64,000 bases of DNA, from NCBI GenBank assembly GCA_030704615.1, contig CM060734.1, positions 12,152,001 to 12,216,000 of the forward strand, in the 5' to 3' direction. Positions within the stretch are counted from its first letter, which is position 1. Each line of letters opens with the position of its first letter. Origin of the DNA: Takakia lepidozioides. Its lineage: Eukaryota > Plantae > Bryophyta. This document shows, one piece after another, positions 9,129 to 45,409 of the stretch. The position numbers were made by a program, and so were the translations under genes. The notes beneath the pieces are model-generated. The model did no database searches and was not told where the DNA came from. It saw only the letters and a program-made list of their open reading frames with translations.

Positions 9129-12100
9129 TGTCAAGTTATTTTACCACTAGTGTGAAACTAGCTAGGAAATAGCTAGCTTTTACATATTGACAATTGGGAT
9201 TGGCCCAAATGTCAATCCAGGTGTCATGGTTTTAGTCATGGTTATCTAGAATTATCTACTTCTAGTTAACTAGGACATTTTAGATATTTATATTTATATT
9301 TTGTGTGTTGGGACTTCATTTGGTCTCACATGCCAAGTGAGGTGTCGAACCTCACTTGAGACATGGAAATAGGTTTTCCCCTTGTGAGTGTTGAGGAGGC
9401 TCATCTTCTTGTAGTTGAGCCTCCATGAGCTTCTCTCACCTCCATAGCTCTAGGTATTGAGAGGGAGTGTGTTGAGGGCTTTGTAGGGTGGATTCCTTTA
9501 GCAAAGGTGCCCTTGGCTTGACTTAGTTTATGTGATAGAGTGGATTTCACTTGGAAGGACTAGGGCTTGTTCTTCATGTGATTGCTTCATGCTTTGAGAG
9601 CTTTCATTGTCTTCTACTTCTCTCATTTCTCATCTCTTATCACTACAAGAATATCACCTTATGCTTGTGAGTGCGGAGTGTAAGGATTAGTTTTGCACTT
9701 GTATTTTAAAGAGGTTGAGAGCTAGGAGAATTTAGCTCTTGTATCACAAGGCTTGCAAGGGGTTGCAAGGAAAGGTGCTCAAGTATTGCCTGCACCAAGG
9801 AGTTGGAGAGCTTGAGAAGAAAGCTCTTGAGTTACAAGATTTTGCAAGGATTGTAAGGAGGAAGTCTTGTGTGTGTGGAAGCATGGATTCTAGGGTTTGA
9901 GAATCCTTTGTATGCATTATGGAGTCGATGGTGTGCGCCATGGCTTGTGGAGAGTGACTAAAGGCTTGTTAGTGCTCATTTCACTATCAAGCTAGGGTTA
10001 AGCAAGTTCAAAGTGTGGATGTTGTGGAAGAGAAGCCAAGGAGCTATATATGCTTGGGCTTGAAGACAACAAGGGCAAGCACTTGGAGAGCACTAAGAAG
10101 CTCAAAGAGGTTTTGAAAGGGAGCATGTGAAGAAATCTTCCAATCATGGTGGTGTGGAGCCAAGCTTAGGGTGCCATTGGAAGGGCTTGGAGAACATGTG
10201 GTGGGAAATCATCATTCAATGTATGCATAGCTTCACCCTAACTATGTAATGTGACAAGAGGGGGAGGCAATACTTGGCTATTCATGCTCTTGGTAGTGCG
10301 AGCTTTGTGGTGGATAGTTGACCAAGCAAGTGGTGCATGTGTGGAGCATGCTCGCTTGAGTTTGTAAGTTCAAGTTTGAGAAGGGGAGCTCTTGAACTAG
10401 CAAGAGGTGAAGGCCTTTGAGATCCATTTGTGTGTGAAGTGGAGAGGTGTTGATTCATGTTATGATGAAGGAGAGCAATACATAGGCCAAGAGGTCATGA
10501 AACATGCATTCAAATGACCACGGGGAGCACATGGATGATGGATTGGTGCAAGACCCCAAATGAGGTATATGGCGTGAGAGTGGGATCCAAGGCGGATTGC
10601 TTGGGAGCATTATTGTAAGTTACAAGCATTGCTCCTACACATTGAGATAATTTGTGTTGATTTGGAGCAATTGTCAAGTGATGAGGAGACAAATGCATGA
10701 TTGCTCGGCAATGGAGATATGGTAGTTTGCAATCAAATCCCAAGGACTAGAAGGGGGATTGATTTGGTGGACAATGACTTGCAAGTTGAGTTGGACCACT
10801 CTTGGTTGCACATTGGGGTGGAAGAGAGCAAGAAGATGCCTCTTATGACCACCTAGAGACCATATTTTTGCTTGAGTAGAAGCATAGAAGTCAAGGACTT
10901 GCATTCTAGCTCTTCATTACAAACCCTAGTAGTGTATGCTCAGACTATACCTCTGTTAGTATACCAAACAGGAGCTTGTCCCTTTGACTATACCTCTGTT
11001 GAGGTATCACCATATGTGAACCCTAATGTGAGACTATACCTCTGTTAGTATACCAAACAGGAGCTTGTCCATTTTACTATACCTCTATTGAGGTATCACC
11101 ATATGTGAACCCTAATCAGCTCAGACTATACCTCTGTTAGTATACCAAACAGGAGCTTGTCCCTTTTACTATACCTCTGTTGAGGTATCACCATATGTGG
11201 ACCCTAATCAGCTCAGACTATACCTCTGTTAGTATACCAAACAGAACCCTCATTTTCAGACTATACCTCTGTAAATGTATCATCAACATAAGGGACCCTA
11301 GCAACCTCAGACTATACCTCTGTTAAGGTATCAACAGTGAAAGGACTTAGTGAAATTTAAGGGCCTTTGGAGGATTGTTTGGAAGATATTTGAGGGCCCT
11401 TGGAGGAGTATTTGGAGGATCTTTGGGGTCATTGGAGGAGTGTTTGGAGGATCTTTGGGGTCCTTAGAGGACCCTTTGAGGAGCTTTGGTGGACAATGTT
11501 GAAGAGCTCTTGAAGGATTGATTGAGGGATATTGAAGGATACTTGCCACGGCCATACAAGCGAGTGGATAGAGACAGGAGGGAGAGTGGTGGGATGAGAG
11601 CATTATGGGGTTAGGAATTGCTTTAGTTTCTCTTCTCCATAGTCTTTCACCCTCTCTGTAGGCCAAAACCTTTCCGTAGGTGGAGGCAAGAGTCAGTCCG
11701 GGTTTGGGCTGGGGTGTCTTTGCAGGAGCGACACTGTGGAGTGTTTTTGGTGTGGGGGAGTTGTTGTCTTGATTTTTTTGTGTTTGGATCCCCTCCACAC
11801 CTGCATGCTTGACTGTGCGCCATGTTAGCTTTGTGTGGGCGCTTGTTTTCATAGGAGGTTGGTCCGGATTTGATCACCGGCCAATCCTAGAGTATGTTGT
11901 CGGTGGTGAGGCTGGAGTGATGACCAGCAAGACCACCAGTGTTTCTTCTATGGTGAGGCTGGGTTGATGACCAGCAGACCATAAGAGTGCTTGCGGTGGA
12001 TGCAGGTGCAGGTACAGGTCTACGTTAGAAACCTATTATTCCTGCTTGAACCAGTAGCCGCAACAGGTTCTTTACCCGGTTACCTTGTAGAAAGTGGGGA

Positions 12101-12148: not shown

Positions 12149-12513
12149 GTGCCACCAGCTGCTGAGGGGAGTGCCGGTACAAGCACCAGCGATACTAGTG
12201 GGTACACAAGACAAGGTGTGCGGTTTAGGCCACTTTCACCTTCAGTGTCTTCTGAGGAAGGTTCAGACTCGGAGTCAGGAGGATTCTCGCCGAGGGTGCA
12301 AGTCATTTCCGTGCCATTGTTGTGGGACACGATGGAGGAGATGTATGGAGCTACCAAGGGGCCACGTAGGTACTCTTGAGCTGTGGGCACCATCGAGCTT
12401 GATGACTTTATACAAGAGTTTGACAGTTGGTGTGATTTGCAGCAAATGCGCAATCCACAACTGTTTACGCCCTTTATGGCGTGGAAGGGGCTATTCCAGC
12501 ACCTTGAAGGCCC
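12149..12513 (+). pseudogene. Disrupted N-terminus of gag
   Basis: Reads MEEMYGATKGPRRYS*AVGTIELDDFIQEFDSWCDLQQMRNPQLF..WKGLFQHLEGP. There is an in-frame TGA at 12377-12379 and a frameshift at ~12513 into the 1267-aa ORF. Confidence 0.7.
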
Positions 12514-15500
12514 ATGGATGATTACCATGAATTTAGGCGGGGACATGCGGTGGAGATTGAGGAGTGGCGAGAGTATTGGTCACCTAACTATGTCTCAATC
12601 ACTAGAGGCAAAAGGGCAGCGGTGACACCAGCAGCTACACAAACATCTCCAACTACAAGCACTAGTAGTGGAACAAGTAGTGCCGGCACTTCTGCAGGTG
12701 GTACCAGTTCAAAAGGTGCTACTACTCCTCCTGCCACAATTACAACACATGTGCCTAGATTCAACCCGGTGGTGGAGTTCTTCCAGGAGTTGCGGAGGAA
12801 CTACCAAGGTGTACGGACAGAGAAGCTGCGAAGTTTGCAAGACTTCCAGCGCAAATCCAGTGAGAGCTTGCGAGAGGCCTACACTCGTATGAGGCGCTTG
12901 ATAAGTGTGACCCAAGGGATTACTGAAGCTCAGGCAGTCCAGTTCTGGTATGGAATTTTGAACAAGGAGCTCAAGAGAAGGGTGCGGGATGCAACCCTGT
13001 TACAAGCGGCCCAACCCACATTAGCGGATGTGTTTCTGCTGGCTGAGCGGATTGAGCTCAACATGGTGGAGGAGCGAGTTGTTACCATTGGATTTGGCAA
13101 GGACATGCCTGCACAAGGTGCAGCTGCCAGCCAACAGGTACAAGGGACTGCCCAACAGCGTGGTCAGGGGGGCAAGGTTGCCCAACCCAAGTTCCATGGA
13201 GCTTACAATGGACCTCAGGTGCAGAGGCCCGTGACATCTTTTGCAGGCCAACAGCAACCAGGGGTGATATGTTGGACATGTGGAGGACCCCATGTCAAGA
13301 GAGATTGCCCAGAGAGTGGCAGAAGGCCGGCACAAGCACAGCCTGCACAGTTGCAGTGTGGGCATTGTGGCAAGCATGGGCATGGAGCTGCCCAGTGTTA
13401 TGACTTGCATCCTGAGTTGCGCCCAGGCCAGTTCCAAGGGAACAATGGTGGCCGGGGGCGAGGTGGACCAGCCCAGAGAGGACGAGGTGGTCGGGCACGA
13501 GGTGCAGGCCAAGGGCAAGCTCAACATGGCCAAGGACGCGGAGGTCAGGGTGTTGACCAAGGCATGGCCAACCGGCTTCAGCAGTTAGAGCAGAGGCTCG
13601 CTGCCATGGCTACAGCTCAGGTGGTACCAGCTCCCAGGCAGGATGGTCCACCTCCTACTCCTGAGGGAGGAGATATGGGAGGCATGGGATTCATGTGCGG
13701 AGCAGCACTACCACTAGTGCAGGTGGAGTCTGCTGCAGCCGTGACTCGAGGAGCAGCACGAGTTCCTGAGCCACGAGGTGCAGAGGTGGAATTGGATCCA
13801 CACCGTGGGGAGGCAAGCCGTCAGGCGAGGCTTCCTCAGTCATTCACATTGGCGGAGATAGTGTCGACGCCATCCATGGCACCTAGTTCTCGCCCGACTG
13901 TTACCGAGGCGGAGGTTACTATGCCATTGGGGAGAGCTACACGTGCAGCACCGACACCTGCTACCAAGGCTAGTGCAGCCGGTGTGTTATCGGGGGCAGC
14001 CACCTCTGTGTGTCAAGCCCCACTGTTCTCGGCAACCATGATTGCGACGCCGGGGGTAAGACCAGCTGCAGTGTTCAGACTAGCAGCAACACTCTACGAG
14101 AGTGAGGAGGTCACTTTATCTTCTGCGGAGTTACTGGAAGGTGTAGTGGCAGAGGGATCTTCGGATTTGAGGGTCAAGACTGCCATGGCTGCGCCACGGC
14201 AAGCTGCAGCTGCCAGGTTGACGGAGCTGCCAGCTAGACCAGCCTTTGAGCACGCCATGGTGACACATGGAGTTGTCTTGTTAGACAACCAGGGAGGCAT
14301 TTTCACTTTGAGTGGACCGGCAGGCAAGAAGTACCGGCCACTGCGGGTCTTGTTGGACTCAGGAGCTCAGCCACTGATGTTGGGCAGAGCTGCTATTGCA
14401 GGTTTGGGCTTCATGGAGGCGGATATGGAGCCTTGTCCTTTCCAGATACAGACATCTCTGGGAGGATCAGAGCAGGCTCGGGGCATGACACGGCGTGAGT
14501 TGGCCATTGGACTACAACCAGATCATCCTGTAGATGGCTCAGTGATGCGAGCCAAGGCCATTGTGACAGACGCGGTCTCTTACAATGTCCTTGTTGGTGG
14601 GGCAGTGTTATATCCCATGGGCTTCACCCTGGACTTTTGGGAGGAGTCAGCATCCTACAGGCCTGGATGGCAGTCAGGGGATGGTCGTCGTGCACAGCTC
14701 CCTGTGACATTCATTGGGGGTATTGCGGCTGCCCAGCGGGGCAAGATGCCAACACTAGCCGCCTTTACAGCTGCAGTTAGTTGGCCTGGAGAGTTGTTGG
14801 AAGGCAATGCCCATGCAGAGGATGTGCCACCTCCAGCAGAGCAGGATGACATGCATGGTACGGCGGAGTTGTCTGCCATGGTTGCTCACACTCCATTATG
14901 GGGTACGAGCAAGGATTTGCAGCAGGCTGCTGATGGACGGGTAAAACAAGCTTGGGTAGAGGCCTTCATACCGTCAGGAGAAGAGGAGAGTGCGGTGATT
15001 GCACCAGGACCACCTCAGTTGTCGCCATTGGACACCACACCTCTTGTGTGGCAGTGCCCGGATGAAGGCATATGCCTTCTGGACTTGTTTGGCGGGATCA
15101 GCACTGGATTGGCTGCAGTACTGCAGGCAGGTGTACGAGTTCGATGTTACCTGTATGTGGAGAGGGATGAGACTACACGACGCGTCTCACTGTGCCATGT
15201 TGCTCAGTTGGTACAGCAGTACCCTGACTTGTTGCCAGTGTCTGCAATTCGTGGATACCAACAAGCCTTGCCAGCAGACATTTCGTTGCTGGGGGCGCAG
15301 GATTTGGAGGGGGTTGGCTCCATTGATCTGGTAGTGGCAGGTTGGCCCTGCCAAGGGCATTCATCAGCCGGGCATGGCAATGGATTGCGAGACTCGAGGA
15401 CGGGTCTGTTTTGGGAGATGGTGCGGATTTTGCGCCACCTGCAGCTTCATCAAGCTGTATCTCCAGTATACATCTTGGAGAATGTGCCACTGATGGGTGA

Positions 15501-16317
15501 TTCTCGGGCCAGGGTGATGGCCAGTGTGCATCAAGTCCTGTCGTGGCTTGGGTCAGCAATGTTGCTGGATGCAGCTGCAGTGGGGTCAGGGGCTCATCGT
15601 CCACGGCTATGGTGGACTAACTTGATGTCACCCGCACTGCTCAAGCGTGTATTTGATGGGGTGCAGCGGCCAGCACACCTCACAGTGGATAGCATTTTGG
15701 ACACAGGGAGGCAGTCTCAACGTGTGAGACACGATGACCGTTTGCCTTTGGCAGTGGTCAACAGGGTGGGTCAACCACGAGCAGCATTACCTACACTGCT
15801 CAGCTTCCCAGGATCCCATGCTTTTCGGGATGGTGGACCTGGCCTCTTGTGGGATAGCCAGTTGCAACAATTAGTGGAGCCCAATGCTGACGAGCGCGAG
15901 CGGGCGATGGGTTTTACCACAGGTACCACGGCGGTGCCATCTCTTTCTGAGGCATCACGTCAGGTGTTGGGGCAAGCAATGGATCTAAATTGCTTGACCT
16001 GGATTATCAGCTTGGCTATGGCTGAGCAGCGCAGAGTACGGAGTACACTTCCCTTCATGGTCTCCCTGCCTACCGAGACGGTACAGGCAGCGAGTGGGGG
16101 CGAGCACGTGAGGACCACGAGGTGCAGGCCGCATCCATGGCACACGTGGGAGGTGCTCGGTGTTCAGAAGGAGTTGGCAGCCAAGGCGGCGGTGATGGAT
16201 CAGGTTGGGGATTTTTCTCGGATTGAGGAGGTCCTCAAAGATGGGATGATGGGGCAGGATGGGACATTGTCACTGACAGAGGAGGCAGTGATCACTGCTC
16301 AAGAGGTTGCAGCATAG
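12514..16317 (+). CDS. Ty3/gypsy-type polyprotein: Gag - 2 zinc knuckles - aspartic protease - C5 DNA cytosine methyltransferase
   Basis: Gag core FQRKSSESLREAYTRM. Knuckles CWTCGGPHVKRDC and CGHCGKHGHGAAQC. RGG tract. Protease LLDSGAQ (Asp codon 14356) plus VLVGGAVL. The C5-MTase motifs follow in the same frame. Confidence 0.9.
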   Translation: MDDYHEFRRGHAVEIEEWREYWSPNYVSITRGKRAAVTPAATQTSPTTSTSSGTSSAGTSAGGTSSKGATTPPATITTHVPRFNPVVEFFQELRRNYQGVRTEKLRSLQDFQRKSSESLREAYTRMRRLISVTQGITEAQAVQFWYGILNKELKRRVRDATLLQAAQPTLADVFLLAERIELNMVEERVVTIGFGKDMPAQGAAASQQVQGTAQQRGQGGKVAQPKFHGAYNGPQVQRPVTSFAGQQQPGVICWTCGGPHVKRDCPESGRRPAQAQPAQLQCGHCGKHGHGAAQCYDLHPELRPGQFQGNNGGRGRGGPAQRGRGGRARGAGQGQAQHGQGRGGQGVDQGMANRLQQLEQRLAAMATAQVVPAPRQDGPPPTPEGGDMGGMGFMCGAALPLVQVESAAAVTRGAARVPEPRGAEVELDPHRGEASRQARLPQSFTLAEIVSTPSMAPSSRPTVTEAEVTMPLGRATRAAPTPATKASAAGVLSGAATSVCQAPLFSATMIATPGVRPAAVFRLAATLYESEEVTLSSAELLEGVVAEGSSDLRVKTAMAAPRQAAAARLTELPARPAFEHAMVTHGVVLLDNQGGIFTLSGPAGKKYRPLRVLLDSGAQPLMLGRAAIAGLGFMEADMEPCPFQIQTSLGGSEQARGMTRRELAIGLQPDHPVDGSVMRAKAIVTDAVSYNVLVGGAVLYPMGFTLDFWEESASYRPGWQSGDGRRAQLPVTFIGGIAAAQRGKMPTLAAFTAAVSWPGELLEGNAHAEDVPPPAEQDDMHGTAELSAMVAHTPLWGTSKDLQQAADGRVKQAWVEAFIPSGEEESAVIAPGPPQLSPLDTTPLVWQCPDEGICLLDLFGGISTGLAAVLQAGVRVRCYLYVERDETTRRVSLCHVAQLVQQYPDLLPVSAIRGYQQALPADISLLGAQDLEGVGSIDLVVAGWPCQGHSSAGHGNGLRDSRTGLFWEMVRILRHLQLHQAVSPVYILENVPLMGDSRARVMASVHQVLSWLGSAMLLDAAAVGSGAHRPRLWWTNLMSPALLKRVFDGVQRPAHLTVDSILDTGRQSQRVRHDDRLPLAVVNRVGQPRAALPTLLSFPGSHAFRDGGPGLLWDSQLQQLVEPNADERERAMGFTTGTTAVPSLSEASRQVLGQAMDLNCLTWIISLAMAEQRRVRSTLPFMVSLPTETVQAASGGEHVRTTRCRPHPWHTWEVLGVQKELAAKAAVMDQVGDFSRIEEVLKDGMMGQDGTLSLTEEAVITAQEVAA
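15070..16020 (+). other. DNMT3-like C5 cytosine methyltransferase domain within the retrotransposon polyprotein
   Basis: Motif I LDLFGGISTG (~15079). Motif II YVERD. Motif IV DLVVAGWPCQG (PCQ 15346-15354). Motif VI ILENV (15478-15486). Motif VIII AHRPRLWWTN (15598). Motif IX ERERAMGF. Motif X QVLGQAM (15961). Canonical, non-permuted order. Confidence 0.93.
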
Positions 16318-17349
16318 CAACCACGGGACGCGTCTTCTACCTCTAAGCCTGCTGGACTCAAGGTTGCAGTCACGGAGGACAACTGGGAGCCTGATGTTGG
16401 ACCTATAGTCACCGGAGGAGAGAGACGACATATACGGCGGTTCTTGAGGGCTTACAATAACTTCTTTGCCTTCAGTTTGAAGGACATAGGAGCACTGAAG
16501 GGTCAAGAGATTCACATTGAATTGGCTACTGACACGTCAATCTTTCGAAGACCCTATAGATACAGTGACATGGAGAGGTCCTTGATTCAGATGAGAACTC
16601 AGGACCTTTGGGAGGCTGGTTTGGTGGAGCTATCTGGGGGAGAGTATGCTTCAGCCACAGTGATGCCAGCCAAGAAGGATGTCTTTGGCAATTGGACGGA
16701 GAGACGTATGTGCGGTGATTACCGACCTGTAAATCGTCAGACCAAGTCCGATAGGTATGTCATGCCAACACCAGAGGAGATCTTTGATGCCATTGGGCAT
16801 GCCAAGATCTTTAGCACGTTGGATTTACGATCCGGATATCACCAGTTGCTGATCAAGGAGGCGGATAAGCAAAAGACGGCATTATGGGGGATCAATGAGC
16901 ACGGGAAGGATTGCCTATACCAGTGGCGGTTCTTACCATTTGGGCTTAAGAACGCTCCGGCAGAGTTTCAGAGAGTCATGGACAGGATTCTAGCAGGGGT
17001 GGAGTTTGCTCGGTGCTACATAGATGACATCATCATCTTTAGTGCTACGGTGGAAGAGCATGAGAGACACCTTCAGGGGGTATTTGAGCGCTTGAGGGCG
17101 CACGGATTGAAGTTACATCCGGGAAAGTGCAAGTTTTTCCACAACCAGATTGAGTATCTGGGTTACATGATATATCCTGGAGGATTGGGGGTACAGCAGA
17201 CTAAGGTAGAGTCCATTGCACAGGTTCCACGCCCCACGGATGTGAGCCGAGTTCGAGCTTTCATGGGGTTAGCAAACTATTATAGACGGTTTGTTAAGGG
17301 ATTTAGTGCCATTGCAAAGGCTCTAACCAAGCTGACCAAGGTGGACCAT
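16318..17349 (+). CDS. Ty3/gypsy reverse transcriptase, same frame as the DNMT ORF, truncated before RNase H/integrase
   Basis: Motifs [53 protein letters not shown] and FMGLANYYRRFVKGFS. No stop lies between TAG 16315-16317 and the RT. Homology is lost after KLTKVD at ~17349. Confidence 0.92.
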
Positions 17350-19050
17350 TGTGGTATAGCTTTCTAGGATTGTGTGCTTAGATTGTGTGGTGGACAACGA
17401 TGTATGTTGTGGCACGATGCTTAGATGCACGACACAGGGGTCAAGGCAGATTTAGGCCCTGGAGTGGTTATCTTCACGGCAAGCACGGGAGGCTCATCTT
17501 TCTCGAGTTGAGCCTCACCGCGCCTAGCTATGGCGCCATAGTGTGGATTCCCCATGGCGTGGGGTGCACTTGGCTTGACTTGTATTTGAGTGATGAGGTT
17601 ATATATGCATGAGTTTATGCTTCAGCTTTGTGAGCTCGCATGAGCTTGTGCTTGTATTTTTTTTTTTTTATCACTCAAGAAAGATGAGCTCGTATCTGTG
17701 AGTGCCAGATACGAGTTAGTTGTAGCGCTTGTGGTTTTTGCTTGAGAATGAGAGAAACCAGGTTGTTATGCAAGGAGCACCGTGGAGCTCTTGGTTGTTA
17801 GAAGTGGAGGCGATGTGGGTTACGAGGTGGTAGACCTTGGCATTCGATCTTCAGCTTCAGAGATGAAAGCACCATGCTGCAAGATTGCAAGACCAAGCGA
17901 AAGGGCTGATTTGGCTTGGGGCAAATCAGTGCACTTTGTGGAGTATGTTGAGATTGGGTTTCAATCTTGAGCTTCAGCATTGAGAGGGCTCTTGTCATGG
18001 CAAGAGCAGGGCTAGAACAAGAGCTAAGAGGTGCGGCAAGGCCATGGAATGTGCACCTAGGGTTTCAGAGCTTGGAAGAAGAGCTCTTGCACCACAAGAG
18101 GAGTGTCTTGTGGCTGGAAATGTAAGCCTTAGGGTTTCAGGAGCTTGGCAAGGGCTGTGGAGTGCTTAGTCTTGTCTTAGAGAGCATCAAGGAGCTAAGG
18201 AGCCAAGATAGGGGGCTGATACCTCTTGTGTGAAGAGGTTGCATGTGTGGAGCATGTATTCAGCTCATTGAAGCTTCCATCTTCAAGCTTGGAGGGCAAG
18301 CAAGGAAGAGGGAAGGGCTGACTTCCCTTATGTGAGAGCAATGCATGTGTGGAGCATGCTTTTAGCCTATTGAAGGCTTGTACTTTCAGGTTTGGGAGTG
18401 CAAGAAAGGAAGGAAGGGGCTGGTTTCCCTGTAGGGCATGTGTGGAGCATGCTTCCAGTCCGCTGAAGCGTGTATTTTCAGGTTGGTGGGTGCAAGAAAG
18501 AAAGCAAAGGGGCTGATTCTCTGGTGGTGAGAGTGGGGCATGTGTGGAGCATGCCTTCAGTCCATTGGGCTTTTGTTTTCAAGCTTTATAGAACTAGAAG
18601 AGAAGGTAAGGGGCTGATCTGCTCTTATGTAACAGTCCGACACTTGTAGAGCGTGTTCTGAGTTGGGGTTTCAACCTCAAGCCTAGATAGAGCATGGCTC
18701 TTGAAGTGGCAGATGTAGGGGGCTGGAATAGCCTCTAAGACAGATACTATGGCCAAGGGAAATGTTTGAATGAGTGCTCACAAGGGCTGGAAACCAGCAA
18801 GGCTTGGTTGTTTGCCATTGAGTTTAGTGGCGTGTTTGGGGAGAAGGCTTGGTTTGTGGCAACCATCTTCCTCATGGCTTAGGGCTACTATTGGTGGTGT
18901 GTGGGAGCCGAAAGAGCAAGAATACCTTGCTGATTTCTTCACAGCCACCATAGCTCGGTGCAAAGAAGCCTAGAGTCCAAGAGACACAAACCCTAGCTTG
19001 GCGTGGCTAAACCCCTTGGAGAAATGCCTAAACTGCCATGAGTGGCTTGT
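17350..19050 (+). mobile_element. LTR-like non-coding segment related to 9129-10900; truncates the DNMT element
   Basis: Begins TGTGGTATAG at the RT break. It has patchy motif identity to 9395-9680 and internal ~100-bp repeats with GCATGTGTGGAGCATG at 18241, 18343, 18436 and 18538. Confidence 0.55.
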
Positions 19051-19051
19051 G

Positions 19052-19160
19052 GGGCTGTGACGGGCTGTGATAGGCTGTGATGGGCTGTGGTGGGCTGTGA
19101 CAGGCTGTGCCCTGTGACCTGTGTAGGGCTGTGACAGGCTGTGCCATGTGGCCTGTGGGT
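19052..19160 (+). repeat. Degenerate 10-bp tandem repeat (RGGCTGTGAY)
   Basis: Reads gggctgtgac gggctgtgat aggctgtgat gggctgtggt gggctgtgac aggctgtgcc... Confidence 0.85.
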
Positions 19161-21273
19161 GAATCGGAAGCGGAGGGAAGTGAAGTTTGAGGCAGGCACG
19201 GAGGTCTGGTTGAACATCAAAAATTTCCGACTACCTCCGGAAGTGAGTCCAAAGTTCGTACCTCCATATGCGGGACCCTTTCGCATCCGGAAGGTTATGA
19301 ATGAGGATGTGTATGAATTGGAGTTGCCGGCAAACAGCAAGGTGCATCCAGTATTCCACGTCTCCCTTTTGAAGCCTTACTTCAAAGAGAAAGCGCGTCC
19401 AAATCGGCATCAAGTGTTGCGTCCGCCACCTATGCTGTTAGATCATGAAAATGAACCTGAGTATGAGGTGGAGGCAGTACTTAAGTCGAGGAGGTTCAAG
19501 AACCGAGAAACAGAGTATCTCGTCAAATGGAAGGGCTATCATCATGTGGAGGCATCTTGGGTGCGTGCCTCAGAAATTGGAAACACATCCGAGGCGGTTG
19601 CAGTTTTCAAAGGGTGACCTCAAAAATGGAAGAAGCGTTGATGGGGACATCAACCTTGGAGCGTGGGGGAGGAAATGCATGCTTAGCCCGGCTTAGCTAG
19701 CTTAGGAATCCGATTGCAAAAACTTGTATTGTACAAAAATTTGTTATAAAGGAAATGGATTCCAAATGTTGTGCGTCCTATTTTGTTTGGAATGGTGATG
19801 CATGGTGTGGTTGGCTAGTGTGTAGAATGCATGCTAGCTTACAAAAGTGGGAGAGGTAAATTGGGTTAATCGTGTGTTTGCGCAGTGCCAAAATCGGGTG
19901 ACTTCCATCCAAATGGGCAAGGAAACTTGCGCGTTCTTTAGGAGTTCACGTGCTAGTGCGCACCTGGCGCGTGCGCATACTATAACTGCGCTACCGAGGG
20001 GGTTGCTTTGTACTGCGGGCTAACGCGGAAGCTACGTGCTTCCGTTCACGTACTATAATCGTGTAGCCTTGGGACGAAGTCGTAGTGCGGCTTCGGCGTG
20101 TTCCCGTACCTTAGGCCAACATTCCGAGGCGGACCCAATTGTAGTGATTGGGGCGTGCGGTTGGTTCAAGGTTATCTTCCTAGTCAAAGAGGGTTCGAGG
20201 TGAACCCTTGCTCAAGGTGATGCCGAAAGCGGCATCATGAGCGGTCGCAAGCAATGTTGTTGCAGTAAGGCGATTCGATCCTCGGGGAGGATCGTTCCTT
20301 GGCCTTGAAGTAGGCCAAGAAGAGTGCACTAGGAGGAGCTTGAGAGGTTCCACCCTTGGCCGGGACTTGGAGGAAATCGGCCGAACTAGCTAGTGGAGAG
20401 TAGAGTCAAGTGTGGGGTTTGGTTCTTTGCCATGGGACGCCATGGTACGGAAACAAACTCCTTGATGTGGGACGCCACAACTTGGATGTTCGTTTCCACA
20501 AAATGTACAAGCCGATGAGGACATCGACTCCCTGTTGGTAGGGGTGTGTGTCGCGGCCCTTTGCCTTGAGGGTAGGGGGTCGGGACACAAGAGGAGCTGC
20601 CCCTGTGGTGGGGGCAGTGGCAGCGATAGGTATGGGGGGCTGAAGCACCCTTGAGTGCCCAAAGCACTCAAGGAGGCGGAGGCACTCACTAGGTGGAGCC
20701 CCGCACACCGGGTTGCGGTGGGGGTGGCTCCACAAGGGGTGGTGGTAGCTTAGCGGGACTTAGTGGGGGTGGCATAGGACTCACCCTGGGGCAGAGACCT
20801 CGTGGTGGGAGTCGTGGGGAGTCTTGGGACTCATCACGGTCCATAGGGGCCGTGGTGAGTGGGCCAAGACTCACCGCGACTCATCACCGGGAGTCGAGGG
20901 TGTTCGTGGTGGTTCGCCATAAAATGGCATGGTTGTTTGTGAAACCCCCGCGGACAGCTACAGAAGTATATATAGGGAGTAGTAACCCCGAGAATGGTGC
21001 AAGCCCGCTGGTGACCAAAAGCTAGTGAGTAAGCAAGCGAGCCGGAAAGTGACCAAAGAGTGGGGAGCTGTTCCGGACTGCCAACTACCAAAGGGAATTC
21101 CGCTAGTTCTAAATCATTGGAGGGTTCTTTGGGAGATCAAGGGGGGACTGTTATGTCCTGGTGAGCAGCCGAAGCTCCAAGTTGGCCCGGCGGCCAGGTT
21201 GGGAGTTAGGCGCGCGCATCAAGCGAGTAACTATGACTTGAGGGGGGAGCTTACCGAAGTGAGGTGCGCGACA
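19161..21273 (+). mobile_element. 5'-truncated older copy of the chromovirus: integrase C-terminus/chromodomain, 3'UTR and 3' LTR (20549-21273)
   Basis: ORF 19141-19617 is nearly identical to the C-terminus of pol 33026-36229 (GPF motif, chromodomain). The LTR runs TGTCGCGG...GCGACA. A premature TGA at 19615 corresponds to CGA in the intact copy. Confidence 0.93.
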
Positions 21274-21279
21274 CTCTAT

Positions 21280-24200
21280 AATCTAACAGGCATTCAGCTT
21301 TTTGCCTCGGTTGTCCCACCATTGACTGGGTCAGAAAAGTATTCATTCCACAACTTCTCCTCATCTCAGTTACACGGTTTTGGATACTTTCCTGCTGTCA
21401 CTTTGGCAGTATCATATCAAAGTCAAGTTCCAAACTATCAAAGGTTCACTCAACCAGCTAACTTGTAGAATTCAACATGAAAATATTTTAGGGCCGATTC
21501 TGATAAGAGGGGAAAACATGTGAAATGTGTCGAAGAAGGTAACTTCATTAGCAGTGCCTGATTTTATCAATTGTGTCGTTGTTGCTGCGGCTTCCAGTTG
21601 ACCATCTACCCATGCAGGTTTCTTGTAGCTATCCTTCCATAGGGAATGATAGGTAATCTGGAGCTTGAAATCCGGCCCTCTTGGATGAATCTGGACCCAC
21701 ACTCTATGCTGTTCCTTCAGCTATCCATGCCTCTGCACAAATCATGCATACATCTTGCCTTGTTGCTAGCAGCTAATAATGACAGCCTAGAACTCTTCCC
21801 GCAAACACCCCAACCATACTTATCACACGAGTTCCTATGCTGACTTGCATTCACCTTTTTGCCTTGATTGTTCAACCATTGACTTGGGTCGGAAACATGT
21901 TCATTTTGGAGCTTCTCCTCGTCTCTGTTATCTGTTTTTCGATACTTTCCTGTTGCCACATTGGCAGTATCATGTCAAAATCACTCCAAAACTACCATAG
22001 ATCCACCAACAAGCTAACTTACAGAATTCAACTTGAAAATTTAGGGACGACTTTGATAACAGGGAAAACAGGATGAAATGTGTTGAAGAAGGTGCCTTCG
22101 TTAGCGGTGCCTGGTTCTATCAATTGTGTTGCTGCCGCTGCTGTTTCCAGTTGACCATCTACCCATGGAGGTTTCTTGTAGCTATTTATCCACGGGGAAT
22201 CAGAAGTAATCTTGTGTTTGAAATCGGGCCCTCTTGGATGAATCTGGACCCACACTCTATCCCTGGTCCTTCGGCTATCCTTGCATGTATACAAACCAGG
22301 CATACATCCTTGCCTTGGTGCTAGCAGCTGACACTGACGGTGTGGAGTTCTTCCAGAAAACACCCCAACCCTACTTATCACACTAGTTCCAAATCTGAAA
22401 TGCCTCTGCTTCTCTTTGTAATCCAATAGGCATTCACCTTTTCTAGAGCTGCTAGGCTTGCACACGCATTGCAAACACAAACAAACGTAATGTGGTTGGG
22501 CTTCACCCCTTCCTGCATCATTTTGCTCGTATGTCTCCAAAGCCTCCATCCCGCAACCCTGCTATGCATGTCCTGCGATCATTGCATTCCACAACACCAC
22601 ATCACATTCAGCCATAATGTCAAACACCCCCCTTTGCATCTTCAATACTCCCACATTTGGCATACATATCCAGCAAGGCAGTGTTCAGAATGACATTTGG
22701 TACAATTCCAGCTTTGACAATGTCACCATGGACCTCTTTGCCATTTTCCGGGGCTACCAGGCTGGCACATGCATTGCAAATGCCATCTGATTGGGCTTTA
22801 CCCCTTCCTACATCATTTGCTCATAGGTCTCCAAAGCCTCCATCCCACGATCCTGCTGTGCATATCCTGCGATCATCGCGCTTCACGACACCACATCACG
22901 TTCAGCCATTTTGTCGAACACTGCCTTTGCATCTTCAATGCACCCAAATTTGGCATACATGTCCACCAGGGCAGTGTTCAGAATGACATCTGGTACAATT
23001 CTAGCTTTGACGATGTCAGCATGGACCTCTTTGCCATTTTCCAGGGCTGCCAGGCTCGCACACGCATTGCAAACGCAAACAAATGTAATGCGGTCGGGCT
23101 TCCCCCCTTCGCACATCATTTGCTCATAGGTCTCCAAAGCATTCATACCACACCCATTCTTGGTAAATCCTGCCAACATTATATTCCACGTGATCAAAGA
23201 TCGTTAAGGGATTCTGTTGAACACTTGGTGAGCATAGATGTACACCAGGGGAATGTTCAGAATGACATGTGGTACAATTCCAGCTTTGATAATGTCAACC
23301 ATGAACCTCTTTGACCATTCCCAGGGCTGCTAGGCTTGCATATGCATATTATAAACACAAATGAACATGACCTGGTCTGGCTTCATCCCTTCCCACATCA
23401 TTTGCTCTTAGGTTTCCAAAGCCTTAATAATCCCATACCCATGCTGCACATACCTTCAATCATGGCACTCCAAAACACCACATCTCGTTCAGCCATATTG
23501 TCAAACTCTCCCTCCGCATCAGGCTTGCTGCACCCACATTTGGCATACATGTCCACCAGGGCAATGTTCAGAATGACATCTGGTACAAATCCAGCTTTGA
23601 TGATGTCACCATGGACCTCTTTCCCTCCAGAGCTCCCATGGTTGCACACGCATTGCAAACACAAACACACGTGATGTGGTTGGGCTTCACCCCTTCGCGC
23701 AGCAGTTGCTCATAGGTCTCCAAAGCATTCCTACCACACCCATGCTTGGTAACTCCTGCCAGCATTATATTATATGGAGACAAGGGTGTTGAGTAGAAAA
23801 ACATTTGGCGTGCATCCACTTTGGATAATGTGAGTGTGCACATGCTTTAATCCAGCGTCCAGACCTTCCATCTTGATGCACTTAAGCAAGGGACAGACAT
23901 GCGTACCTGAATCTGCTGAAATGCCTCATTGGTTTGAAGTATGTAGAGCCTATGTCAGTCTGTTTGCCGCAAAACATCTTCACATGCCCAGAAGTGCCAG
24001 AAGAGGCATTGTGGACTCCCTCTCTTGATCCTCTTTCAGAAGCTGTGGTCATGGTTGAGGTGCCTGGTTTTATGAACTGTGCCACTGCAGCTACAGCCTT
24101 TAGTTGACCATCTACCCATGCAGGTTTCTTGTAGCTATTGATCCACAGGGAATCACATCTGGTATAATTCCAGCTTTGGCGATGCAACCACGCACCTCTT

Positions 24201-26500
24201 TGCCCTTTTCCAGGGCTGCCAGGCTTGCACACGCACTGCAAACGCACACAAACCTGATGTGGTCGGGCTTCACCCTTCCCCAATCATTTGCTCATAGGTC
24301 TCCAAAGCCTTCATCACGTGCCTTTGTTGTGCATACCCTGCAAGCATTGCATTCCATGACATCACATCTCGTTCAGCCAGAGTGTGGAAAACTCCCTTCC
24401 CATCCTGAGTGCACCCACATTTGGCAAACATGTCCACCAGGGCAGTGTTCAGGATGACATCTGGTACAATGTCACCATGGACCTCTTTCCCCTTTCCCAG
24501 AGCTCCCAGGCTTGCACACACATTGCAAACACAAATAAATGTGATGTGGTTGGGCTTCACCCCTTCGCACATCATTTGCTCATAGTTCTCAAAAGCCTCC
24601 ATCCCACACCCTTGCTGTGCATATCCTGCAATCATCACACTCTAAGACACCCACGTCTTGTTCAACCATACTGTCAAACACTCCCTTCATACATGTCCAC
24701 GAGGGTTTGTGGCAGCAGGAAAGTATCCAAAAACAGATAACATAGCTGAGGAGAAGCTCGTTGGTGGATCTATGGTGGTTTTGGAGTGATTTTGACATGT
24801 TGCTGTAGGTAGGGTTAGGGCGTCAGTGTTAGCTGCTTCAGCTGCTAGCTGCAGCAAGGCTGAGGATGTATTCACGATTTGTACACAAGCATGGATAGAT
24901 TGTGGGTCCACATTCATCCAAGAGGCCCGGATTTCAAGCTCCAGATTACCTATCATTCTATGTGGAGGATAGCTACAAGAAACAGATGGTCAACTGGAAG
25001 CCCCCGCAGCAGCGGCACAATGGATAAAATCAGGCACTACTAACGAAGGCACCTTCTTCAACACATTTCACCCTGTTTTTCCTTCTTATCAGAATTGGCC
25101 CTAAATTTCCATGTTGAATTCTGCAAGTTAGCTGGTTGAGTGAATCTTGTTTGGAGTGACTTTGATATGATACTACCAATGTGACAGCATGAAAGTATCC
25201 AAAAATAGGTAACAGATATGAGGAGAAGTTGTGGGATGAATAATCTTCTGACCCCAGTAAATGGTGGGACAACCGAGGCAAAAAGGTGAATGCTTGTCAG
25301 ATTACAGAGAGTAGCAGATGCAATTGACCATAGGAACTAGTGTGATTAGTTGAGTTGGGTGCAATTGTACTCTCTGTTTCCTCTCTGCTTCTGTTTGCTA
25401 TTCAAAGGTAGGATTCCTGCCCTAAGTTTAAATTTCAGTCTAGTGCCGAGAGTGGGTAGACCCTTGAGGTCATCCATGATGTCCTCCCCCATGTCACAAA
25501 CTGGAAACAAGTCCAGGGAAGTTTTCTACCTAACTTCATTTTCATCAGATAATTTTCTGGAAACAGACATGGCTTTGGACACTACAACCTCTAAGTCAGT
25601 AGGGTTGGGGTGTTTGCTGGAACAATTCTAGGCTGTCATTGTCAGCTGCTAGCAGCAAGGCAAGGATGTGGGCATGATTTGTGCAGAGGCCTGGATAGCT
25701 GAAGGAGCAGGGATAGAGTGTGAAGATGCTTTGTGAGGCACGCAGACTGACAGAGGCTCTACAGACTTTAAACCAACGAGGCATTTCAGCAGATTCAAAT
25801 ACATATGTCTGTCTCTTGCTTAAGTGCATCAAGATCAAAGGTCTGGAAGCTGGAAACATTAGCACATGCAAAGAGGTTTGGTTGCATCACCAAAGCTGGA
25901 ATTGTACTAGATGTGATTCTGAACAATACTCTCGTGGGCATGACTGAAGGAGCAGGGATAGAGTGTGGGTGCAGATTCATCCAAGAGGCCCGGATTTCAA
26001 GCTCCAGATTACCTATGATTCCCTGTGGAAGGATAGCTACAAGAAACCTGCATGGGTAGATGGTCAACTGGAAGCTGCAGCAGCAGCACAATTGATAAAA
26101 TCAGGCACTGCTAATGAAGGCACCTTCTTCAACACATGAGACCCTATTTTTCCCTCTTATCAGAATCGGCCCTAAATTTCCATGTTGAATTTCTGCAAGT
26201 TAGCTGGTTGAGTGAATCTAGTTTGGAGTGACTTTGACATGATATTGCCAATGTGACAACAGGAAAGTATCCAAAAATAGGTAACAGAGATGAGGAGAAG
26301 TTGTGGAATGAATACTTTTCTGACCCTAGTCAATGGTGGGACAATCGAGGCAAAAAGGTGTATGCCTGTCAATTACCAGATGTCATTCTGAACACTGCCC
26401 TGGTGGACATGTATGCCAAATGTGGGTGAATCGAGGATACAAAGGGAGTGTTCAATACTATGGCTGAATGAGATGTGGTATCGTGGAGTGTGATGCTTGC
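21280..26500. pseudogene. Patchwork of PLS-class PPR gene fragments interleaved with R2 modules, both orientations
   Basis: Repeated ALVDMYAKCG..EDAK.VFD.MAERDVVSW.AM.AGYAQQG.G.EALETYEQM..EGVKP..ITFVCVCNACASLAALE.GKEVH at 22430-23990(-), 24150-24700(-), 25720-25940(+) and 26375-26500(+), with many frameshifts and stops. No E/DYW domain was seen. Confidence 0.9.
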
Positions 26501-31129: not shown

Positions 31130-31400
31130 AGGCCCGCTCAAGCACCAGATGAACTTTAACTCTCCATGTCTTGGGGCTGTAACATCCAATAAGCCCACAG
31201 CCCATGCACAGTGTGTCCTAGGAATTCTTTTCTGCTAAGGATAGACCATGAGCAGACTGCCCTAGTCTGTCCGCATCTTCCTCCACCATGTTGAAATCTC
31301 TTCCCATTATCCAGTGTTGGATATGTGTGTGTTGCAATAGCTTGTCCCTAATTTGATCCCAGAGACCAACCCTCTCATCTTCCCCATTCGGGGCATAAAT
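31130..31400 (-). pseudogene. LINE APE endonuclease, part downstream of the gypsy insertion
   Basis: Reads IYAPNGEDERVGLWDQI...WIMGRDFNMVE and joins ..GVLNIY from 38367. Confidence 0.9.
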
Positions 31401-33025
31401 TGTCGCACACCTCAGTTCGGTAAACTCCCCTTCAAGTCATAGTTACTCGCTTTGATGCGCGCGCCTGACTCCCAACCTGGCCGCCGGGCCAACTTGGAGT
31501 TTCGGCTGCTCACCGGGACATAACGGTCCCCTTCCGCTTCCCTCTAAACCCTCCACCTATTTGGGACTAGGAGAATTCCCTTTGGTAGATGGCAGTCCGG
31601 AAGAGCTCCCCACTCTTTGGTCGCTTTCCGGCTCGCTCGCTTACTCACTAGTTTTTGGTCACCAACGGGCTTGCACCGTTCTCGGGGTTACTACTCCCTA
31701 TATATACTTCTGTAGCTGTCCGCGGGGGTTTCATAACCAGCCATGCCATTTTATGGTGAACCACCACGAAAACCCTCGACTCCCGGTGGTGAGTCGCGGT
31801 GAGTCTTGGCCCACTCACCGCGGCCCCAATGGACCGTGATGAGTCCCAAGACTCCCCACGACTCCCACCTCGAGGTCTCCACCCCATGGTGAGTCCTATG
31901 CCACCCCCACTAAGTCCCACTAAGCTACCACCACCCCTTGTGGAGCCACCTCCACCGCAACCCGGTGTGCGGGGCTCCACCTAGTGAGCGCCTCCGCCTC
32001 CTTGAGTGCCTTGGGCACTCAAGGGTGCTTCAGCCCCCCATACCTATCGCTGCCGCTGCCCCCACCACAGGGGCAGCCCCTCATGTGTCCCGACCCCCTG
32101 CCCTCAAGGCAAAGGGCCGCGACACACACCCCTACCAACAGGGAGTCGATGTCCTCATCGACTTGTCCATTTTGTAGAAACGAACATCCAAGTTGTGGCG
32201 TCCCACATCAAGGAGTTTGTTTCCGTACCATGGCGTCCCATGGCAAAGAACCAAACCCCACACTTGACTCCACTCTCCACTAGCTAGTTCGGCCGATTTC
32301 CTCCAAGTCCCGGCCAAGGGTGGAGCCTCTCCAGCTCCTCCCAGTGCACTCTTCTTGGCCTACTTCAAGGCCAAGGAACGATCCTCCCCGAGGATCGAAT
32401 CGCCTTACTGCAACAACATTGCTTGCGATCGCTCATGATGCCGCTTTTGGCATCACCTTGAGCAAGGGTTCACCTGGAACCCTCTTTGACTAGGAAGATA
32501 ACCTTGAACCAACCGTGCGCCCCAATCACTACAATTGGGTCCGCCTTGGAATGCTGGCCTGAGGTACGGGAACACGCCGAAGCCGCACTACGACTTCGTC
32601 CCGAGGCTACACGATTATAGTACGTGAACGGAAGCACGTAGCTTCCGCGTTAGCCCGCACTACAAGGCAACCCCCTCGGTAGCGCAGTTATAGTACGCGC
32701 ACGCGCCAGGTGCGCACTAGCACTTGAACTCCCAAATAAGGCGCAAGTTTCCTTGCCCCTTGGATGGGAGTCACCCGATTTCGGCACTGCGCAAACACAC
32801 GATTAACCCAATTTACCTCTCCCACTTTTGTAAGCTAGCATGCATTCTACACACCAGCCAACCACACCATGCATCTCCAAACACAATAGGACGCACAATA
32901 TTTGGAACCCATTTCCTTTATCACAAATTTTTGTACAATACAAGTTTTTGCAATCGGATTCCTGAGCTAGATAAACCGGGCTAAGCATGCATTTCCTCCC
33001 CCACGCTCCAAGGTTGATGTCCCCA

Positions 33026-36000
33026 TCAACGCTTCTTCCGCTTTTGAGGTCGCCCTTCGAACGCTGCAACTGCCTCGGATGCGTTTCCCATTTCTGAGGC
33101 ACGCACCCAAGATGCCTCCACAAGATGATAGCCCTTCCATTTGACGAGATACTCCGTTTCTCGGTTCTTGAACCTCCTCGACTTAAGTATTGCCTCCACC
33201 TCGTACTCGGGTTCATTTTCATGATCCAACAGCATAGGTGGCGGACGCAACACTTGCTGCCGATTCGGACGTGCTTCATCTTTGAAGTAAGGCTTCAAAA
33301 GGGAGACATGGAATACTGGGTGCACCTTGCTGTTTGCTGGCAGCTCCAATTCATACACATCCTCATTCATAACCCTCCGAATGCGAAAGGGACCCGCATA
33401 CGGAGGTACGAACTTCGGACTCATTTCCGGAGGTAGTCGAAAATTCTTGATGTTCAACCAGACCTCTGTGCCTGCCTCAAACTTCACTTCCCTCCGCTTC
33501 CGATTTGCCTGCCTTTCATACCGTTTCCTAGCTTTGGCAATGTTGTACTTTGCGAGCTTCAACAAACGCTCGCGTTCTTCCAGTACCGCCGCTACTGCCG
33601 GTTCCTCAACGTCCTGGGCGGCCCAACTTGTCGGCACCAGAGGTGCTTTTCCATAGACCAACACAAAAGGGGAAACTCCCGTCGCGGAGTGTTCTGTGTT
33701 ATTATAACAGAACTCTGCCGCGTCTAAGTGTTCCATCCAGTCTGATTGGTCTGCCGACACGTAATTCCGCAAGAATTGCTTCACTACGGAATTCACTCTT
33801 TCCGTTTGGCCGTCCGTCGTAGGTCGGAAGGCGGTGCTCATCTTCAGCCTCGTCCCCATCTTCTTCCAAAGTGCTCTCCAGAATTTACTCGTAAACTTTG
33901 GGTCGCGGTCCGAGACAATATCCTTCGGGACTCCATGATGCTTTAAGACGTGGGCGAAGTAAAGTCGCCCTGTCTCCTGCGCAGTTGCCGTCTCCTTGGT
34001 GGGGATGAAATGGGCCATTTTACTGAACCTATCTACCACCACCATGATTGCATCGAATCCTTTTGACAGCGGCATAGCAGTCATGAAATCCATCGAGACG
34101 CTTTCCCAAGTCCCCTCTGGAATCGGCAAGGGTTGTAACAGCCCCGCTTGCTTTTTATACTCGCTCCGGTTTTGTTGGCATGTGGTGCATGTCTTTACAT
34201 ACTCCTCTGCCTCCTCCCTCAGTTTGGGCCAGAAATACTCTTTCTTCAAGAGTGCCGCAGTGCGCTTGGCTCCACCGTGGCCCGCAAGCGGGCTATCATG
34301 GCATTCTCTCAAGAGACTATCCCTGATCCCTCCCTTTGGCACATAGAGACGTTTTTGCTTATACCGGAGCAGTCCGTTTTGCAAGTGGAACTGCGATTTA
34401 ACCCCCATTCTCAAGTTCTGCATCACGCACTTTGCCAGCTCATCCTTCCGGCAAGCCTTCCGGATCTTCCTTTGGAGCGCCGTCTCGCCCTTGTACACCA
34501 ACAAGAGCTGTTGCTTTCTACTTAAAGCATCGGCCACCACATTGTCCCGTCCCGGTTTGTACTGGATATCCAAGTCAAACACTGCCAAAGTATCTTGCCA
34601 CCTAAGTTGTTTTGGGGACAACTTGGGCTGCGTGGCAAAATACTTCACCGTGACATTGTCCGTGAACACCTTCACTGGGTTGGAACCAACATAGTGGCGC
34701 CAGAGTTCAAGGCAATGTACCACCGCCTTCATCTCTTTTTCGTGCGTCGGCCACCGTCGCTCCACTTCATTCAGTTTCTTACTTTCGTAAGCCACTGGAC
34801 GTCCATCTTGCATAAGTACACCCCCAATTGCGAAGTCCGATGCATCTGTATGAATCTCAAACGGACGATCGAACTCCGGGATTTTTAAGACTGGAGCTTC
34901 CGTCATCCGCTGCTTCAATTCAGCAAAAGCTTGGCCACAAAATGTGTTCCATACCCAGACTTTGGATTTACACAGAAGGTCCGACAGCGGCCCCGCGATC
35001 TTGGCGAAATTTCTCACATACTTCCGGTAATAGGAGGCGAGTCCTAGGAAGGATCGCACTCCCGGGACCGAAGTCGGAGGCTCCCAGTCCAAGATCGCCC
35101 TCACCTTTCTGTCATCCATTTTGATCCCATCCTGTGTAATCACGTGCCCCAAGAACTCCACTTTTGTGACCCCGAATTCGCACTTTGAAGCTTTGGCATA
35201 CAGCTTCCCTTCTCGCAATTTTTGGAACACCCTTTTGAGGTGCTCCAGGTGCTCCTCCTTTGTTTTCGAGTACACCAAGATGTCGTCGATGTACACGATC
35301 ACAAAGTCATCCAACCACTCCTGGAAAAGGCTGTTCATCAGCGTGCTAAATGTCGCTGGTGCATTGGTGAGCCCAAAAGGCATCACCAAGAACTCATATG
35401 AACCATACCTTGTCCTGCACGCGGTCTTCTCCTCATCTCCTTCCGCCACCCGAATTTGGTGATAGCCGGAGCGCAAGTCGATCCGGCTGAAATACTTCGC
35501 TCCTGCCAACCGATCGAAGAGGTCGTCGATCCTTGGCAAAGGGTACCGGTTTTTGATAGTCACCTTATTCAGAGCCCTGTAATCGACACACATCCGCAGC
35601 GTCCCATCCTTCTTGTCTGCAAATAGCACCGGGGCTCCGTAAGGTGACTTACTCGGCCGGATGTACCCCTTTGACATTAGATCTTTGAGCTGAGTCTTCA
35701 GCTCGACCAACTCTTTGTGGCTCAACCGGTAGGGCGCCTTGGCAGGCGGTTCCGATCCCGGTATCACCTCAATTTTGTGGTCAACTCCTCTTCGCGGTGG
35801 CAAGCCGCTTGGTAAATCCTCCGGCATCACATCCTGGTATTTCTCCAAAATCCCCTTGATCCAATCTGGGCTCGGCTCCCCATCGCCTTCTCCTTTCACT
35901 TCTCTAATGTAAAGCAAAAACTGGGACTCGTGTGTCTCCTCCACGGCCCACTCCTTTGCTGATAGAAGGTTTATTCGCCCTCCCACGGATTTGGGCGTTT

Positions 36001-36240
36001 CCGACACTCGTAAAACCTCGCCACCATTCCCACATGGCAGCGTGACTACTCTCTTGCGGCCATCTATGACCGCTCCGGATTTGCTCAAAAAGGTCATTCC
36101 CAAAATGAGATCCACTCCATCGATCTCGCAGATAGTGAAGTTCTCACGTCCCTCCCAACTCCCCAGTTGAAGAGGAACATCAAACGCCAACCTTGTCGCC
36201 AACTGAGGTTCTCCTTTGGCAGAGCGCACCTCAATAGAGG
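33026..36240 (-). CDS. pol: pol: protease C-terminal half, RT, RNase H, integrase, chromodomain
   Basis: Motifs [63 protein letters not shown] and [24 protein letters not shown]. Confidence 0.95.
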
Positions 36241-37587: not shown

Positions 37588-37628
37588 GATGAGGCCAATC
37601 CCAAGGACGATCGCGTACTGAACTCTAA

Positions 37629-37640
37629 GCTCTGATACCA
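37629..37640 (-). promoter_or_regulatory. Primer-binding site, tRNA-iMet
   Basis: TGGTATCAGAGC lies 2 nt inside the 5' LTR. Confidence 0.95.
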
Positions 37641-41574: not shown

Positions 41575-41924
41575 ACTACGAGCTTATCCCTGCGCCCACA
41601 ACACTACTACCGTGTGATTTCACATGCCAAAAACAAAAAAGGCCTGACTTGCTATTGCTGTCAGCCCCCCCCCACCATTCCAAAAGGAAAAGAAAAAAAA
41701 GGGTGGGGGGGGGGACTGAGAGCAGCAGCAGCAAGTACTTGCTGCCGTAGCTCTCAGCGCCCCCCACCATTGCCAAAACCAAAAATGTGGGGGGGGGGCT
41801 AAGACCAGCAGCAGCCTCTCATCACCCCCCACCATTCCAAAAACAAAAAACGAAAAGGTGGGGGGGGGGGGGATTGACTGAGCAACAACTTCTTTTCTAT
41901 TTTTCTTCCCTCATCTCTCCCACT

Positions 41925-45393: not shown

Positions 45394-45409
45394 AAATCTC
45401 ATTTTTTGT

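Follow-up and report, generated by a model that had tools for sequence, protein, structure and literature searches.

Among the closest described relatives of the element treated here is KnitGypsy-Dnmt3 from Klebsormidium nitens, a Ty3/Gypsy retrotransposon with a Dnmt3-type DNA methyltransferase (DNMT) domain that is under purifying selection and is described within the Pol open reading frame (ORF) (PMC5890265; here and below, papers are cited for the sections that bear on the point made). Gypsy-Dnmt3 elements have been termed streptophyte elements (PMC12344493; bioRxiv 10.64898/2026.05.21.726589), a 2019 opinion paper states, in the section cited, that 'land plants, such as tracheophytes' lack transposons with a methylase (PMC6338049), and the role of transposon-borne cytosine methyltransferases is said to be unclear (PMC5890265, Discussion). 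The other closely related system is readthrough of the tobacco mosaic virus (TMV) type, or type I, in which an in-frame UAG followed by the hexamer CARYYA precedes a polymerase frame (PMC2754532, PMC4132726). In TMV the six nucleotides are essential, readthrough reaches ~10% in vivo (9-32% in plant reporters), and the residue inserted in N. benthamiana is Tyr; in 2009, the verified cases of readthrough in plants were all viral (PMC2754532).

Here we analyse a 64,000-nucleotide stretch of Takakia lepidozioides DNA (contig CM060734.1, positions 12,152,001 to 12,216,000; "the window") that holds the remnant of a Dnmt3-carrying Ty3/Gypsy long terminal repeat (LTR) retrotransposon, in which a single TAG stands between the frame for Gag, protease (PR) and DNMT and that for reverse transcriptase (RT). 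Sequence comparisons argue strongly for a real, deeply conserved recoding-type signal in an element of known kind, and programmed low-frequency readthrough of a conserved stop through a TMV-type CARYYA context is very probably how this family expresses RT.

Results

An in-frame TAG separates DNMT from RT

Features of the window copy, all on the plus strand, are:

12332-12520, plus: gag N-terminus, out of frame with the remainder and interrupted by a TGA (12377-12379) and a frameshift (near 12510-12520), from tblastn and three-frame translation.
12508-16317, plus: remainder of ORF1, 1269 codons, with gag tail, two CCHC-like knuckles, protease, DNMT, linker and TAG (52% identity to residues 46-1268 of Marchantia protein P0005).
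14263-14742, plus: aspartic protease region, motif LDSGA with D at 14356, boundaries approximate (motif reading).
15058-16035, plus: Dnmt3-like C5 cytosine methyltransferase domain, motifs FGG, GWPCQG, ENV and HRPR (PF00145, E 3.9e-13).
16315-16323, plus: putative readthrough signal, the conserved in-frame TAG and its CAA CCA hexamer (CARYYA), from the sequence, sister copies and relatives.
16318-16536, plus: head of ORF2, a stretch of 73 codons up to the RT anchor that lacks an in-frame ATG and shows protein-level constraint between families.
16537-17349, plus: RT, ending at about 17349 (PF00078, E 1.2e-31); RNase H (RH) and integrase (IN) are absent from the window copy.

The sequence at 16312-16323 is GCA TAG CAA CCA, in which CAA CCA conforms to CARYYA. 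An open frame of 1269 codons (12508-16314) leads up to the stop and continues in the same frame for 349 codons beyond it (16318-17364), the TAG at 16315 being the only stop from the gag tail to RT. In the window protein, PF00145 (DNA_methylase) lies 5' of the stop and PF00078 (RVT_1) 3' of it, and the ORF1 product extends 93 residues past DNMT. A reading made earlier from the letters of this DNA (the sequence-only reading) had described a single in-frame TAG in a perfect CARYYA context between Gag-PR-DNMT and RT; motif, frame and domain order bear this out, but gag of the same copy has other lesions.

Those lesions were located with P0005, whose residues 1-63 match 12332-12520 in frame 2 (83%), while the rest matches frame 1 (tblastn). 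The window copy is a dead remnant and, its gag being broken, is itself unable to make the polyprotein. Its knuckles were identified by eye (about 13270-13398); a Pfam scan gave no match for the protease in the window protein, and the corresponding region of locus L029, a relative described below, matches Asp_protease_2 with an E of 2e-4, weaker than the curated cut-off. Similarity to the ORF2 of L029 and to the DNA of another relative, L014, stops at 17348-17349. No terminal direct repeats were found for the window copy. A chromodomain and LTR at 19135-21126, considered as the 3' end of the DNMT element, were rejected as such, as they match an element at 31398-38366 instead. A tandem repeat of ~92 nt in four copies (10942-11330) lies 5' of the element's gag, and another piece of a DNMT-bearing element of this family, derived from the integrase part, occupies 2307-2686 on the minus strand (78-83% protein identity to L029).

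Taken alone, the motif is barely more than chance: TAGCARYYA matches the window 8 times against 3.66 expected, with 3 of 100 shuffles reaching 8, and 4 of the 89 CAG, TGG or TAG codons in the element's frame have CARYYA directly after them. From the window alone, decay is a fair rival, and it is because the stop motif is kept in relatives that it rises above chance.

The stop is kept in sister copies and in distant relatives

Contigs of four public sequencing runs were compared with 16262-16372 at 80% likeness, differences being listed from 1%; this gave 616 contigs from run X1, 7 from X7 and one each from X5 (which bears another organism label) and X10. Variants occur at 16311, 16312, 16324, 16325, 16330, 16335 and 16336 and none of at least 1% at 16313-16323, in a comparison where variant detection is poor close to the ends of 16262-16372 and X1 is possibly the window's own source. 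TAG is the family state, also in X5. Summed contig depths in these runs do not amount to copy numbers. The X10 contig spans the stop unspliced; the RNA label of this run is a guess, and we do not take the contig as a sign of expression.

More distant relatives came from scanning metagenomes with 10 aligned ORF1-type proteins as the query, which gave 50 loci. We set 14 aside, 3 without the C-terminal part of DNMT and 11 without an RT start behind DNMT (short contigs, insertions or other domain order), although 3 of these 11 keep an in-frame TAG CAA CCC, TAG CAA CCA or TAG CAA TCA; the 36 informative loci are those that cover the end of DNMT as well as the beginning of RT. In 35 of the 36, a stop in frame with RT is present 68-75 codons 5' of the RT anchor (28 TAG, 7 TAA), the single exception being L026, a frameshifted copy with TAC CAA CCC, and none of the 36 has CAG or TGG at the stop position. 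The sequence-only reading had suggested aligning this codon across copies, sense codons in most of them being the outcome that would tell against a recoding signal; what the sister copies and these loci have is a stop. A scan of viral contigs gave one locus, without the C-terminal part of DNMT.

Over seven family representatives, the three letters of the stop are invariant, and the hexamers after it are CAACCA (window), CAACCA (L022), CAACCC, CAGTTA (L028/L029), CAATCA (L032), CAATCA (L042) and TAGCCA (L037, a damaged copy with TAG TAG CCA). The hexamer is thus perfect in 5 of the 7, the window included (4 of 6 when only the families of the loci are counted). This contrasts with what surrounds it: RT DNA identity between families is 0.61-0.83, likeness over the 150 nt upstream of the stop is mostly 43-59%, roughly the noise level (65-67% in L028/L029 versus L032), and synonymous sites are near saturation, with a proportion of synonymous differences (pS) of 0.52-0.83 in 5 of 6 pairs. 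Since R and Y vary within the consensus while the second codon switches between Pro, Leu and Ser, the constraint appears to act at the RNA level. In control counts, none of 27 decay stops inside RT is followed by CARYY, and CARYYA comes after 45 of the 9004 TAGs that the loci contain (junctions included). No stable 3' fold was found in the window, where folding is worse than in shuffles (z +2.0, +1.2); six relatives have z of -0.6 to -4.5.

Several observations weigh against readthrough. The hexamer is perfect in only 5 of the 36 loci, and all six CARYYA positions mattered in a mammalian reporter (PMC4132726). The most abundant family (29 of the 36 loci), which we call peat-moss-type because the head of L014 matches Sphagnum fallax protein P0011, has CAA CCC in 26 of its 29 copies, off consensus at +6, and an ATG as the third codon after the stop in 28 of 29, its junction lying 68 codons before RT (among L002-L050); it is the weak point, and this family may rely on reinitiation, perhaps after a switch from readthrough, or on a weaker leak. 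Among sister copies, variation of at least 1% affects ~14% of sites in X1 (170 in 1201), so that about a quarter of 9-mers are expected to be invariant and nine invariant letters are not significant alone: the sister copies exclude private decay, yet by themselves give no proof of selection on the hexamer. The stop-bearing elements moreover form one clade (see below), and hence the conservation comes from one origin, not from repeated invention. From other systems, the KnitGypsy-Dnmt3 domain was inactive in yeast, a result its authors regard as inconclusive (PMC5890265), and the gag stop region of Candida Tca2 gave no readthrough in yeast (PMC2194720). The TAA in 7 of 29 peat-moss-type copies was considered as a trace of stop-preserving selection and rejected as ordinary decay, since G>A at other TAG sites of the same copies is about as common (25 of 116, 22%); these variants speak neither for readthrough nor against it.

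Intact relatives and purifying selection on both sides of the stop

Most copies observed are damaged. In L029, 1369 open codons for Gag-PR-DNMT lead to TAG CAG TTA, and a further 1047 codons, which encode RT, RNase H, integrase and PHD finger, then run without another stop; L032 likewise has 1047 open codons 3' of the stop. The order Gag-PR-RT-RNaseH-integrase is present in the relatives L029, L022 and P0017. The integrase C-terminus lacks a chromodomain, L029 terminating in the PHD finger. Flanking direct repeats are found in two of four loci, L014 and L031 (8.5-8.7 kb apart, 85-94% alike), and not in L029 and L032.

The head after the stop (67-74 codons to the RT anchor) is constrained as protein: the proportion of nonsynonymous differences (pN) is 0.03-0.31 against a pS of 0.23-0.75, in 6 of 6 pairs, whereas the 50 codons 5' of the stop are mostly without such constraint. 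No ATG occurs in the head between stop and RT in the window, L029 and L042 (L028 and L037 have Met at position 5), and so a head that is constrained but lacks an ATG must in these three be reached from upstream. Purifying selection between families is also apparent in RT (pN 0.05-0.14, pS 0.28-0.83) and in DNMT (pN 0.03-0.24, pS 0.22-0.77, in all 5 pairs with DNMT coordinates), where GWPCQG, ENV and HR.R are invariant in 7 of 7 aligned rows. The best PDB sequence matches of the window DNMT are DNMT3A (E 1.3e-8) which, with the similarity to the K. nitens protein, identifies it as a predicted enzyme of the Dnmt3 type.

Protein-database searches, in which about 8000 candidates were scored, gave liverwort proteins as the nearest named homologues of the DNMT (72-73% identity), which by itself would make a non-seed land plant the likely host. 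Among the matches listed, 31 of 43 PR-DNMT proteins without RT stop 55-181 residues past DNMT, including those of Marchantia polymorpha and Calypogeia fissa. Six more distant PR-DNMT proteins (P0044, P0045, P0061, P0064, P0069 and P0070) also end soon after DNMT, three of them within 13-14 residues, and may have another recoding site at their ends.

The stop marks one clade among fused relatives

In two RT trees (midpoint-rooted for drawing), one supported clade (98/99 and 96/96) unites the stop-bearing loci with two Marchantia models, and fused PR-DNMT-RT proteins, including P0062 of K. nitens, fall outside it. A third group, with its own RT clade, has DNMT between RNase H and integrase (P0020-P0025, P0053, P0067, P0073; L043), mostly with a PHD finger; the green alga Monoraphidium is the named source of one related protein. 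Judged from these trees, the stop is the mark of one derived clade, to which liverwort and peat-moss elements belong, and the simplest reading would be that a fused ancestor gained it once. The placement of DNMT downstream of protease, which the sequence-only reading had called unusual, is not so: P0062 has the order PR-DNMT-RT-IN, with a DNMT 44% identical to that of the window, and a DNMT between protease and RT is therefore already known, in fused form, from Klebsormidium.

Alternatives to readthrough

Partial splicing as in Ogre, where a partly spliced intron splits Gag-PR from RT-RH-IN (PMC6317226), would have the AG of the TAG serve as a 3' acceptor, occasional removal of an intron ending at the stop bringing pol into frame. 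The invariant AG is compatible with this, a run of T precedes the stop in the peat-moss-type family, and DNMT and RT are joined in some gene models of Marchantia and Sphagnum (P0001-3, P0011). These models, however, skip differing stretches, as expected of introns guessed around a stop, and none of the 7 listed joints has GT..AG ends (the runs being mostly DNA). In the 8 loci examined there is no common AG-free zone or pyrimidine tract (pyrimidine fraction 0.44-0.64 in the 25 nt upstream), the preceding AG is just 3-5 nt upstream in 3, and, where Ogre has a spacer of ~274 bp, a single codon stands and no non-coding spacer with splice signals. Nor would splicing predict the CARYYA hexamer, and we consider this explanation unlikely.

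No more probable, in our view, is a tight stop with pol made separately, by reinitiation after it or from an internal promoter. The ATG in 28 of 29 peat-moss-type copies, which lack the A at +6, and the Met in the heads of L028 and L037 would suit such a start, and a weak promoter at the junction is described for Tca2 (PMC2194720). Against it stand the window, L029 and L042, with no ATG before the RT core although their head is under protein-level constraint, and a separate start leaves the hexamer and the strict frame unexplained; it may apply to the CAA CCC ATG family alone.

A non-autonomous family, in which a nonsense change of the ancestor was copied on and other elements supply RT, would agree with the single clade and the many damaged copies, but is largely refuted by the strong purifying selection on RT and the 1047 open codons after the stop in both L029 and L032; we hold it to be very improbable. 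Ordinary CAG>TAG or TGG>TAG decay of the window copy, the deamination alternative of the sequence-only reading, with CAA CCA following by chance, might be suggested by the damage elsewhere in this copy, a depletion of CpG (observed/expected 0.48) and the 4 in 89 codons noted above, but is refuted, and its chance negligible, as no CAG or TGG is seen in sister copies (at least 1%) or in any informative relative.

Other elements in the window

A separate, apparently intact Ty3 element with a chromodomain lies at 31398-38366 on the minus strand, with a fragment at 19135-21126 on the plus strand, and the chromodomain at 19135-19617 is part of this other family. Its Gag-CCHC-protease frame (36094-37653) overlaps the pol-chromodomain frame (33026-36247) in a different frame, likely a frameshift junction, and it is probably young, as its terminal repeats are 100% alike (300 nt compared). 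At 41900-49600, direct repeats of ~1.7 kb that are 97-99% alike and lie 5973 nt apart surround broken frames that match RT weakly (E 0.022) and contain the motifs GIPMG..SP and RYIDD, which we guess to be a Penelope-like element. Decayed repeats of ~293 nt occupy 22000-24700 and 62400-64000; their translation presumably resembles PLS-type PPR motifs, and the open frames scanned there, possibly not the coding ones, gave no Pfam match.

Discussion

Readthrough would work as follows in intact members. Most ribosomes would halt at the stop and release Gag-PR-DNMT, and a minority would insert an amino acid (Tyr, by analogy with TMV) and go on to make Gag-PR-DNMT-RT-RNaseH-integrase-PHD; protease and methyltransferase would be made at one per Gag, RT and integrase at several-fold less. 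One step further, DNMT might be packaged in the particle and methylate the cDNA; methylation of cDNA was proposed by de Mendoza et al. for DIRS elements (PMC5890265). It is tempting, if somewhat doubtful, to suppose that a land-plant Ty3 clade gained its leaky stop for the sake of placing Dnmt3 on the Gag side, so that enzyme at capsid level methylates cDNA before integration while the PHD-bearing integrase picks the chromatin; if true, this would be an element writing its own epigenetic state.

If readthrough holds, TMV-type recoding gains a gypsy-type example encoded in a plant genome, and a switch setting DNMT at the Gag level and RT at a fraction of it gives a nine-letter handle on the role of transposon DNMTs, with close relatives in the model liverwort Marchantia polymorpha. 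The family also places methylase-bearing transposons in land plants. For annotation it matters that current gene models split these frames or bridge them with guessed introns. A full-text literature search, which covered few subscription journals, found no report of a readthrough signal in Gypsy-Dnmt3 elements; the figures and supplementary material of de Mendoza 2018, of Sarre 2025 and of the 2026 preprint, which lay outside that search, may already list bryophyte copies.

Among known systems, Ogre reaches the same split, with Gag-protease abundant and RT-RH-IN rare, but through its intron, whereas here a single in-frame codon would suffice, and the element has a DNMT and a PHD finger on its integrase; 'methyltransferase', 'PHD' and 'Marchantia' are absent from the main text of the Ogre paper (PMC6317226). 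Murine leukaemia virus (MuLV) gag-pol and Tca2 share an in-frame stop within a retroelement polyprotein, there 5' of protease and followed by a pseudoknot or putative pseudoknot (PMC2194720), in contrast to the window, where protease lies 5' of the stop and no stable 3' fold follows.

Soybean SIRE1 (copia) and rice RIRE2 (gypsy) are likewise plant LTR elements with two frames split by one stop, in CARYYA-like contexts, the stop of RIRE2 lying between gag and pol. Suppression is cited for the SIRE1 stop between pol and env (PMC2829016, PMC2194720), and RIRE2 is cited as a candidate (PMC2754532); as described there, neither puts an enzyme such as DNMT on the abundant side. With TMV-type readthrough the element shares the in-frame UAG-CARYYA with a polymerase frame behind it and, the CAA CCC ATG family excepted, a constrained frame without a start of its own after the stop; it differs in being a retrotransposon and in its hexamers (CAA CCA, CAG TTA and CAA TCA, against CAA UUA in TMV). 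Like KnitGypsy-Dnmt3, it is a Ty3/Gypsy element with a selected Dnmt3-type domain, but P0062 is continuous from DNMT to RT through a 154-residue linker (a partial gene model, compared at the protein level), whereas in the window family, whose near relatives are named from liverworts and peat moss, a conserved stop parts the two, and the family is hence placed as a derived variant of, and not as, KnitGypsy-Dnmt3 itself.

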